From: Glycera tridactyla
Lineage: Eukaryota
Direction of reading: 5' to 3'
Assembly: GCA_965644265.1 (NCBI GenBank)
Contig: OZ286473.1
Location: 24,738,001-24,802,000, forward strand
DNA: 64,000 nucleotides
Shown: piece by piece, positions 47,279 through 50,199 of the stretch
How positions within the stretch are numbered: position 1 is the stretch's first letter
Layout: every line of letters starts with the position of its first letter
Position numbers and translations under genes: made by a program
The notes under the pieces: generated by a model
What the model saw: only the letters and a program-made list of their open reading frames with translations
Database searches by the model: none
What the model was told of the DNA's origin: nothing

Positions 47279-47361
47279 CACGTGGCTAGATGGCGCCCCA
47301 GGCGGGGTATATAAGAGCTGCAACCGGACTGCTCGGCCCACTTTCAGCTCCAACGAGTCAG
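47279..47361 (+). promoter_or_regulatory. Retroelement promoter and short leader
   Basis: E-box CACGTG 47279-47284, GC box GGCGGGG 47301-47307, TATATAAG 47308-47315. A pyrimidine-rich initiator-like sequence lies ~30 nt downstream, then a possible donor CAG|GTGATA at 47361/47362. Confidence 0.6.
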
Positions 47362-47389
47362 GTGATAGTTCTATTGTTACGCGCGGCGC

Positions 47390-48169
47390 ATGATCGGTTT
47401 ACCTCGTGTAGATATGGCTTCCTTTAAGCCAAAGTTTGCTCCGTATGTACCACTCAACCACTGGCTTGGTCGTAAACCTAAAGTTACCATTTTAGGCCAC
47501 TCAATGACAAAACACCAGGACGAAGCGCTGATAGATACTATATCTGAGGAAGGTCTATGGCCTGAAATTGTGGCTGGGACACTGTCCAGAGGTGAGGTAA
47601 ATGCTCATGTAATGAATCTTTCGGACACCTTCGCTGAGGTGGACTTTCGTTCATGTACATTTCTGAAAACCTATGAAGGAAATGAGGATATCCAGGATGA
47701 AATGTTGGCGGTAGACGCTCTTGCACCTGATATTTTACTGCTGGACTTAGGCTCCAATGATTTGGTTCGTCTTGGGAGTGACCCGGTGGCACTGGCTTAT
47801 GAGTTGGTTCATTTTGGGGCTGCAGCAGTGGCAAGAGGGACGGTCAAAATGGTCCTATTTATGGCCTGCTTGGACCGTTTGGCGGCTCCTCCAAATTTCA
47901 GGCAAAAGGCCCTTTCCTTTAATAGGAACCTGGAATTCCTTTGCGAGAACAGTGGTACGTTGAAATTATATGAAACTCGAGGTTTCGGAAGATTAGAACC
48001 TGGTATCCCACGAGCCATTGTTCGTTGGAGTGTGGATGGTATTCATCCGACTCGTGGCTCGAAGTACTTCAGGCGTTACGGGATGCAGTTACGTCACGCA
48101 CTATTAACTTGCGTTCCGCAATTAGGCCGCCTGGTTTGTGGGGTGCGAGCGGTGCCTGCGCTGAACTGA
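47390..48169 (+). CDS. SGNH/GDSL-like hydrolase of the retroelement (259 aa, intact)
   Basis: Block I VTILGHS, block III LLLDLGSND, block V DGIH. Catalytic Ser, Asp and His are present. Confidence 0.88.
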   Translation: MIGLPRVDMASFKPKFAPYVPLNHWLGRKPKVTILGHSMTKHQDEALIDTISEEGLWPEIVAGTLSRGEVNAHVMNLSDTFAEVDFRSCTFLKTYEGNEDIQDEMLAVDALAPDILLLDLGSNDLVRLGSDPVALAYELVHFGAAAVARGTVKMVLFMACLDRLAAPPNFRQKALSFNRNLEFLCENSGTLKLYETRGFGRLEPGIPRAIVRWSVDGIHPTRGSKYFRRYGMQLRHALLTCVPQLGRLVCGVRAVPALN

Positions 48170-48305
48170 AAGTGTGTGTTATGGGGATGTACATTTCTGT
48201 TGTTGGGGTTTATTTCTTTTGTTGGGTTTATATTTACTTTGTTAGGTTCGTTTGTCTGTCCACTTGTATAACTTGAGAGCTACCGGTGTTTTTCAATTTT
48301 GTAGC

Positions 48306-50199
48306 ATGGCTAAAAGGCAGCATTCGGAAGACATAGATGATAGAATTGGGCGTAAACAAGCCAACTCTGACAGACCTGATGATGGATTGGTTTTTAAACC
48401 AGTGGACGGACACCTGAACAGCAGGGACCCATAACTTGACTTGATAGGTGGTGCTTCCCAATCATCCACCTTATCTCAGGTTTGTATAGAACTTTCACAA
48501 ATCCCTTGTGCTCAGCCCCCTATTGTGTCCTCTCACCTTGATGTGACACAGACGTCTAATGATCCTACCTTGGATTCCCAGAGGAGTATGGGACAGAAGC
48601 TCGATAGATTACGAAGGCATGGAGCAAATGCGAATTCTGTAAAGCATAGGCAAGTGCAAAACGGTATAGGTAGAGCTGTACCTAATCATCACGGATTTGG
48701 GCCACGTGTTCCTGTATTTCCACAAGGGGACAGTACATCACCTGCTGCGCCACCATTGATTTCGCCTTTGTATAATCAGAATGTTTCTCTCCCTAACAGG
48801 GATGCTCTGATCGAGCTCAAGCACGATTTCAGAATCTCGATGGATATGGCATTCAAACAAATGGAGGCGATAAGCAACGTTATGGAGTCCATACAAGGGC
48901 GCATGAATCAGATGGCGGCTTCAGATGGCGGTATTGGTGGCAGTGGTGGCAATGGCTGCAATGCTGATGGCATTAATGGAGGTAATACACCTTTCTTTTC
49001 TGAGTCTTTCAGGCCTAGTATGAACAATAATGCTACGGATACTGATGCTCGTAGTGAACATGTGAACATGCTCTCGGGGGACAGACAAACTGGTTGTATT
49101 TTGAGGCAAGGTTCGGGGGTTAATGAATGACGAGTAACGGATACGGATGACCGAATCCGCTACTCTAACAGTTGCGATGTCAATTACAGACAACTCCTTA
49201 GGTCGGGTATACAGACCCAGTCAAGCGTTACGCGCGGCATGTTGAATCAAAGGGGGGGTGATATGCAGCCTTTGTTAGCTCAAGGTCAGTCCTTTGATAC
49301 ATTTCAAAGGTTGGAGTCTCTCAAGGACAGATTTACGAGAGAGGCTAATGTTTTTTCGCAAGCGCAGACTGACTCTGCTGGTAGTATAGGCATACGGAGT
49401 ACTCCAGGTATATTTCAACGGGGAGCAAACATAGCTTCTCCTTTTGTGGGTTTTCCATTGGAAGGTCAGACCGGGGTATTGCAGGTTGACAATCCTGAAC
49501 CAAGACAGATGATTACAGCAGGGTTGCCCATTGGGTTCAACGTGGACTTAGCTACACGCATTGATATCTGGGAGGATAAATTCGTTGACCTGGCTGAGCT
49601 TATGCATACAGCCAGAATTGTGAACCCTCAGTACAAGGTTGACGGCAAAACAGGCCATTTTGTCGCGGCAAAACGGCGGAAGAACATTACCAACATTTTT
49701 GAATGGGATAAAGCCTTCTTAATCTTTCAAGGCATATACAACCAGCATCCTTTCAAAAACCCGGTCCAAAAGGCCAAAGATGGCTGCGATCTACTGACAT
49801 ACGTTCACGATGTACGAGAGCTAGCAGCAAAAGGGGGTGATTTCCTTTCATACGATGAGAACTTCCGGTCTCTCCGTGCTCAGATGCTGTTTCCATTTGC
49901 TTGGTCCACTTACCACGTTGTATTATACCAGAATTGTCTCAAAATTGATACTGTGAATTCTAATGCAACAGGCAAACAAGAGGGTTCCAATGGGGGGAAA
50001 GTTACCAAAGGGAGTGTGTCACATATTTAATGCCAAGGGGAAACGCTGTAACATTCCCAACTGTATCTTTAAGCACGTATGCGCTACATGTGCAGGTAAC
50101 CACCCTGTTTATGCCTGCAGGGGGAACATAGGAACAGGGCAGAACTCATTTAAGAAGAAACAATCGGGTGGTGACCCCGGTAAATCCACACCATCTTGA
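48306..50199 (+). pseudogene. gag-like ORF1 interrupted by two in-frame stops and one frameshift
   Basis: ATG 48306 and track ORFs 48441 and 49239 share one frame, separated only by TAA 48432 and TGA 49128. Conserved DIRS/Ngaro gag core (IWEDKFVDLAEL...EWDKAFLIF...YDENFR). An extra G in the G6 run near 49992 shifts to the frame carrying CHIFNAKGKRCNIPNCIFKHVCATCAGNHPVYAC. Confidence 0.85.

Follow-up and report, generated by a model that had tools for sequence, protein, structure and literature searches.

A Ngaro-type clade of tyrosine-recombinase (YR) retrotransposons in Glycera tridactyla very probably expresses four proteins from a single transcript, each from a successive state of intron retention. 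The clade was studied starting from one copy in a 64,000 nt stretch of contig OZ286473.1 (the window, to whose plus strand all positions refer unless a locus is named). A preliminary description of this stretch had placed an ORF for an SGNH hydrolase inside a leader intron and proposed a splice-controlled choice between SGNH and Gag. This choice is supported for the clade, but it appears to be one step of a larger programme that also serves the reverse transcriptase (RT) and probably YR. Transcription would begin at about position 47340. RNA retaining intron 1 would give SGNH from its first ATG, and the fully unspliced RNA would be the genome of the element. Removal of intron 1 would bring the gag ATG to about 23 nt from the cap and yield Gag, removal of introns 1 and 2 would yield a protein of about 770 aa in which Gag(1-225) is fused to RT/RNase H (RH), and splicing on to the acceptor at 51664 would yield Gag(1-225)-YR of about 545-580 aa.

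Re-reading of the window sequence confirmed all coordinates of the described leader. A donor-like site, CAG/GTGATA (the slash marks the splice point), is present at 47361/47362, and no ATG occurs between the predicted start site at 47340 and this donor. The acceptor-like TTTTGTAG ends at 48304 (AG at 48303-48304) and is followed by a single C and the gag ATG at 48306, which has A at -3 and G at +4. The interval from donor to acceptor measures 943 nt and holds the whole 259-codon SGNH ORF (47390-48169), whose ATG at 47390 is the first one 3' of the donor. The tract, described as a long pyrimidine tract, is T-rich and not a pure run: 12 of the 18 bases at -20 to -3 before 48304 are pyrimidines, and a T/G-rich stretch lies further 5'. 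A TATA box (47308..47315), with an equally spaced TATA-like box in the representatives, and an initiator-like CCACTTT (A at 47340) are both located upstream of the donor. With a start at this initiator, exon 1 (47340..47361) would be about 22 nt long. A YAGRKGGCGC motif (47286-47296), which recurs in many subfamilies, lies about 15-20 nt 5' of the TATA box and presumably resembles a CTCF or YY1 site.

The promoter is contained in the 298 bp terminal repeat A1 (47060..47357), which is 95.6-100% identical to A2 in 8 of 20 close copies and has a common 5' end in 14 aligned copies. Intron 1 (GT-AG, 47362..48304) is followed by the gag ORF (48306..50199), which has about 630 codons in siblings and C-terminal zinc fingers. 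A small intron of 320 nt (48480..48799) lies inside gag, and intron 2 (48982..50120) takes up its C-terminal half. The RT/RH frame (50121..51748) begins with a predicted exon of 105 nt (50121..50225) that ends in a donor-like AG/GTGAG. Predicted intron 3 (50226..51664) covers RT/RH and ends in CAG at 51662-51664, in the phase of the YR exon (51665..52626). Terminal repeat B (52660..53416, 757 bp) was delimited by comparison of close copies. The window copy consists of A1, the ORFs and a single B; A2, spacer and B2 are absent. Its gag is broken by a stop after 42 codons at 48432, a second stop at 49128 and a one-base insertion near 49989, and its RT frame has stops at 50129 and 51713. This copy is decayed and unable to make Gag; the earlier statement that spliced RNA yields Gag can be upheld for the clade, but not for the copy on which it was based.

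The 20 close copies were fetched and used to define A1, SGNH, gag, RT/RH, YR and B; beyond B, 8 of them run on into A2, spacer and B2. In a protein search 147 of 1903 candidates were scored (47-100% identity) and 60 diverged ones were fetched, and a promoter-pattern search added 14 loci, 9 of them family members. Split direct repeats A1/A2 and B1/B2 are present in 46 of 81 loci, and the order of the element is A1-SGNH-gag-RT/RH-YR-B1-A2-B2. RVT_1 scored above the Pfam cut-off, RNase H and Phage_int_SAM scored below it, and R..HxxR..Y motifs were seen. The Pfam profile search gave no integrase family match in the element, and DDE integrase and protease are absent. A methyltransferase domain, as in PAT-like and DIRS-like elements, is absent as well (no Dam match at E 0.1; the RT ORF ends about 30 codons past the RH motif), as are the inverted repeats with ICR of DIRS-like elements. 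By its architecture the element is a Ngaro-like YR retrotransposon, with an RT tree that covers only copies from this genome. The protein collection contained one relative for YR (P0001, a phage-integrase relative, E 1.2e-11) and one for SGNH; no longer YR fusion was visible among these relatives, and no relatives were found in the metagenome contigs.

Several derived arrangements were seen. Solo A-spacer-B copies (L146, L147) and A1-ORFs-B copies (the window copy, L031, L037, L039, L043) are the expected products of recombination between A1 and A2 or B1 and B2. In all 46 split-repeat copies (e.g., at L033:7194-7245, oriented) A2 is followed by a spacer of 29-72 nt, in which a conserved C-rich motif replaces the donor. 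The promoter is complete in A2, which may therefore drive transcription of a short RNA made of spacer and B; a role in priming or strand transfer is possible. Of 43 B repeats, 34 contain AATAAA, located about 80-250 nt from the start of B (the window has AATACA at 52957), so the genomic RNA must read through the B1 signal and end in B2. Units of B-A-spacer form tandem arrays at the 3' end of L084, L087, L103 and L154, and in L112 (471-671 and 7172-7669) an element is seemingly inserted in the SGNH gene of another element. L161 (G000:C1:25930079) is an unrelated repeat that has the same TATA-initiator pattern, a 1123-codon open frame and 497-bp tandem repeats. The window also contains a GACGTCC array with an 11-bp period and inverted symmetry (59923-60727), and a dispersed repeat of 140-240 nt in at least 9 copies on both strands (40657-62380).

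The ORF within intron 1 is open in the window and matched Pfam Lipase_GDSL_2 with an E value of 2.7e-4, below the curated cut-off; a search of the PDB returned PAF acetylhydrolase only (E 0.04). The Ser of block I, the GxN of block III and the DxxH of block V of SGNH hydrolases are present. In an alignment of 21 SGNH proteins S38, G121, D216 and H219 are invariant, and N123 is listed as invariant, with two rows reading GTND. We predict that the ORF encodes an SGNH esterase. Identity among the representatives is 37-91% (median 54%), the frame is open in 29 of them, and dN/dS was 0.04-0.07 in the 5 of 12 pairs with unsaturated dS, which indicates that purifying selection acts on SGNH.

The 5' position of SGNH had been considered native, and the order of the loci points the same way. 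SGNH is located upstream of gag/RT/YR in 79 of the 80 loci having both, a count that tests only what follows SGNH, as the excised loci extend 1 kb 5' of it; the exception is an intron-less copy whose SGNH match falls outside the element. In 46 split-repeat copies SGNH lies directly behind A1, which fixes the 5' end of its placement. Locus order and A1 adjacency led us to reject circular permutation or chance insertion of SGNH, and the 5' placement is considered native to the element.

Conservation of GT and AG across copies, on which the proposed leader intron had hinged, was followed in 40 representatives hand-picked from 92 loci, some of them close to one another. Anchored on the promoter, AG/GT is found at +20 to +24 from the initiator in all 40, compared to a chance mean of 5.2 and a maximum of 14 in 1000 shuffles. 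Position +3 of this donor is always a purine and -3 is A or C in 37; A occupies +4 in 32 of the 40, and only 2 have G at +5. Anchored on A1/A2 homology, AG/GT is present 1-4 nt past the end of A1 in 45 of 46 split-repeat copies (one has lost it), versus 0 of 46 after A2. At the other end, all 40 representatives have an AG 0-6 nt ahead of the gag ATG, at a distance of at most 1 nt in 37 (the site of L153 looks degenerate), whereas the same spacing before the SGNH ATG was seen in 5 of 34 controls. AG is depleted at -25 to -3 before this acceptor (4 observed versus 29.8 expected), T occupies -6 and -5 in 38 and 36 of the 40, and the base that would stand at -3 of the gag ATG after splicing is always a purine. 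For the branch motif, YTRAY was found in 10 of 40 (10.7 expected) and TRAC in 19 (7.9 expected). Exon 1 contains an ATG in 5 of the 40, and the SGNH ATG was confirmed as the first ATG after the donor in only 32. Synonymous sites between subfamilies show dS of 0.4-1.75 or are saturated. Two other candidate donors, one in phase 1 at 48447 and one within the start of SGNH, were rejected because neither is conserved. GT-AG ends, a MAG/GTRA donor, a T-rich tract and an AG exclusion zone, the features of U2 introns, are all present. This pattern argues that intron 1 is almost certainly spliced and that it belongs, as a true spliceosomal intron, to this Ngaro-type clade.

Further splice sites came from a blind scan of every column in an alignment of 32 near-complete representatives, using approximate textbook splice matrices. 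The top donors were 48981 (32/32), 50225 (28/32) and 48479 (26/32), and the top acceptors 51664 (29/32 above threshold), 50120 (27/32) and 48799 (23/32). Donor 48981 lies in a low-complexity segment of gag; its AG/GTA is invariant and G at +5 occurs in 3 of 32. It is in phase 1 in gag, as are acceptors 50120 and 51664 in the RT and YR frames, and in all 13 scored copies with four open frames YR shares the frame of gag while RT lies in +1. Joining 48981 to 50121 would give an in-frame Gag-RT/RH protein with about 225 Gag codons, 765-802 aa long in unbroken copies. Joining 48981 to 51665 would give Gag-YR of 527-577 aa; inclusion of the small exon 50121..50225, which elsewhere has 105-117 nt and always a multiple of three, would add 35-39 aa. 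In the 5 of 32 representatives missing the RT acceptor, an in-phase AG is located 27 nt upstream (four) or 48 nt upstream (the fifth).

YR has no conserved ATG: in 8 copies its first Met is at codon 25-112. ATG 51742 was rejected as a YR start, since it is not conserved and forms part of the Trp-stop of the RH frame. Both the RT and the YR acceptor are situated in coding sequence, so protein constraint contributes to their conservation, and constraint on the RT protein may contribute to that of donor 50225. The Gln codon that forms the acceptor at 51662-51664 is CAG in 30 of 32 representatives and CAA in none, while elsewhere in the same frame 113 CAG face 149 CAA, and a pyrimidine tract and a CCTGAY branch-like motif are found upstream. 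We consider it likely that this conserved in-phase acceptor joins the Gag N-terminus to the start-less recombinase, giving Gag-YR. The small gag intron leads from phase 0 to phase 2; its excision shifts the frame and would result in a truncated product of 60-110 aa, which stands outside the main model. Through decay or re-initiation this intron may adjust how much protein is made. The exon that separates it from intron 2 (48800-48900) encodes a conserved amphipathic, coiled-coil-like segment, in which in-frame Met codons at the fixed offsets 40, 61 and 82 are possible re-initiation sites.

Spliced RNA of a retroelement can be reverse-transcribed, and for this reason the genome was searched for joined-exon patterns. 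A first intron-1 junction pattern, which would catch 22 of the 40 representatives, gave 2 matches (control 1). With a looser pattern there were 35 matches (control 45); among the 30 examined, four rows represented three true copies, one of them additional. These copies (L144, L145 and L198) are complete A1-gag-RT-YR-B1-A2-B2 elements that lack exactly the GT-AG interval of their siblings, 930-931 nt in L144, 954 nt in L145 and 855-866 nt in L198. They come from three subfamilies, and have lost the SGNH gene along with intron 1 and kept exon 1. Their full A1 upstream of the start site suggests the replication path of the element itself rather than LINE-type retroposition. In all three the gag, RT and YR frames are long and open and the A repeats are 99-100% identical, and each was found once. 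Two further copies (L199 and L200; 6 matches, 2 true, control 0) lack exactly the 1177-nt intron 2 and keep intron 1, and L211, judged by comparison with relatives at about 70% identity, is exactly without the small gag intron (single match, control 0). The blind scan had predicted both of these introns before the copies missing them were found.

A fast, preliminary tree of 42 RT rows, all of them copies from this genome, placed L144, L145, L199 and L200 each in a separate, strongly supported group with intron-bearing siblings, and L198 has six such siblings at 97-99% identity. Because the intron-less copies nest among intron-bearing ones in separate branches, the losses are independent. In the subfamily of the window no intron-less copy was seen (one junction match, unrelated), a pattern fitting 24 of 32 representatives gave 0 matches for copies spliced to the YR acceptor, and none of the six intron-less copies lacks two introns together. 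Read as fossils of spliced RNA, these copies show that the introns 47362-48304, 48982-50120 and 48480-48799 were each excised to the base in RNAs that were reverse-transcribed; the leader intron is thereby real at the level of the clade.

The six short copies could in principle reflect DNA deletion or template switching at 2-3 nt of AG(G) microhomology without any splicing, since their junction ends share AG or AGG and the searches were targeted at these junctions. This explanation is extremely improbable: each element body offers about 60,000 AG-AG pairs, yet six events in six subfamilies hit three GT-AG pairs, two of them repeatedly, and an untargeted survey of other internal deletions turned up GT-AG ends in 0 of 7. 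It is also very unlikely that splicing is incidental or host-imposed and that re-initiation and frameshifting on unspliced RNA make the proteins. Intron-less copies are indeed rare (1 intron-less versus about 33 distinct unspliced 5' ends, by eye, among 100 matches listed of 428), and the small gag intron breaks the frame. Such a view has to contend, however, with sites kept in 32-40 of 32-40 lineages despite saturated synonymous sites, in a non-coding spacer and a low-complexity gag segment, and with matching phases.

Two alternatives accept most of the splicing and concern single products. Introns 1 and 2 may be real while YR is made by a ribosomal frameshift from the RH end or from a non-AUG start, with 51664 kept by RNase H constraint only. 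In line with this, no fossil copy has the YR-acceptor junction, about 36 codons of the YR frame overlap the end of RH, and the site encodes a conserved Ser-Gln. The exclusive use of CAG over CAA, the upstream tract and branch-like motif and a phase compatible with both upstream donors make this explanation unlikely. The other alternative, which we regard as rather doubtful, is that SGNH is translated mainly from an RNA that retains intron 1 and is spliced downstream or ends early, not from full-length genomic RNA. The copies L199, L200 and L211 keep intron 1 and miss a downstream intron, so such RNAs exist, and an RNA of 6 kb with a stop at about 0.8 kb would be prone to nonsense-mediated decay. 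Coupling of splicing with early termination is described for plant Copia elements in the available text of PMC5580714. However, AATAAA or ATTAAA was found in 0 of 29 spacers between SGNH and gag, and early polyadenylation after SGNH was rejected on this count. With either RNA SGNH needs intron 1 to be retained, and the proposed choice between SGNH and Gag stands.

Within the scheme of stepwise intron retention, the lack of G at +5 in two retained-intron donors would keep splicing partial and preserve unspliced genomes, and, more speculatively, an intron signal or the SGNH product might favour unspliced RNA for replication. As a tentative generalization, which is possible rather than probable, Ngaro-type elements could in general be expressed by stepwise intron retention: with a single promoter, a shared Gag N-terminal exon would supply the start codon and a particle-targeting coil to RT and YR, each enzyme lying in or behind its own intron. 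Here the unspliced genome would be the SGNH mRNA, and SGNH or an intron signal would select it for replication. Under such selection, intron-less copies with open gag, RT and YR would stay single.

Tyrosine-recombinase retrotransposons have overlapping frames, often without start codons, and the available text of the literature covered does not state their expression route. Spliceosomal introns in some YR elements were reportedly mentioned by Goodwin and Poulter. The clade described here offers a complete, base-precise and testable expression scheme, with fossil support for three of the four predicted introns, in a retroelement that would keep several spliceosomal introns through reverse transcription. 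If RT and YR are redefined as Gag fusions, current ORF annotations would be incomplete. Searching for intron-less copies is a cheap, genome-only method that can be applied to any DIRS-order family.

The scheme had been likened to that of retroviruses. In retroviruses the major donor closely follows the R-like segment of the 5' repeat and weak sites spare unspliced genomic RNA, and foamy viruses make Pol from spliced RNA; both features are similar here. Retroviral Gag, in contrast, comes from unspliced RNA. In this clade the relation seems reversed: Gag would require splicing, and the unspliced RNA starts with an accessory gene. We know of no retroviral scheme in which a shared Gag N-terminal exon is fused to both RT and the integrating enzyme.

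The match to Ngaro-type architecture is drawn from the available text of PMC9210276, PMC3783388 and PMC4157794. Among Ngaro-like YR retrotransposons, the Xenopus elements DIRS-53_XT and DIRS-54_XT carry an SGNH hydrolase and share with the Glycera element the split direct repeats A1-ORFs-B1-A2-B2, gag, RT/RH without methyltransferase, YR and the extra SGNH ORF (PMC9210276, as far as its text was available). The hydrolase follows YR in the Xenopus elements, where it has no proven function, whereas it precedes gag inside an intron here (same source). The terms "splic-" and "intron" are absent from the main text of PMC9210276 and PMC3783388. No description of splice-based expression of Ngaro/DIRS ORFs or of a 5' SGNH was found in the literature in its available parts, including PMC7192593, PMC9341512 and PMC13465315; Repbase, subscription reviews and supplements may hold spliced annotations. 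Solo AB repeats are common to this family and the Cafeteria Ngaros (PMC8547959, available part). PAT-like elements resemble the family in their split direct repeats and the zinc finger in Gag, but encode a methyltransferase after RH that is absent here (available parts of PMC4157794 and PMC6681497). The closest parallel in expression is with the Ty1/Copia element EVD of Arabidopsis, in which, as proposed for this clade, a conserved and partly retained intron sets the ratio of Gag to enzyme and Gag comes from spliced RNA (PMC5580714, available text). EVD differs in having one intron, in producing Pol from unspliced RNA and in coupling splicing to early termination (same source), while the clade has at least three introns, would make its enzymes from more-spliced RNAs, and has an unspliced RNA that begins with an accessory gene.
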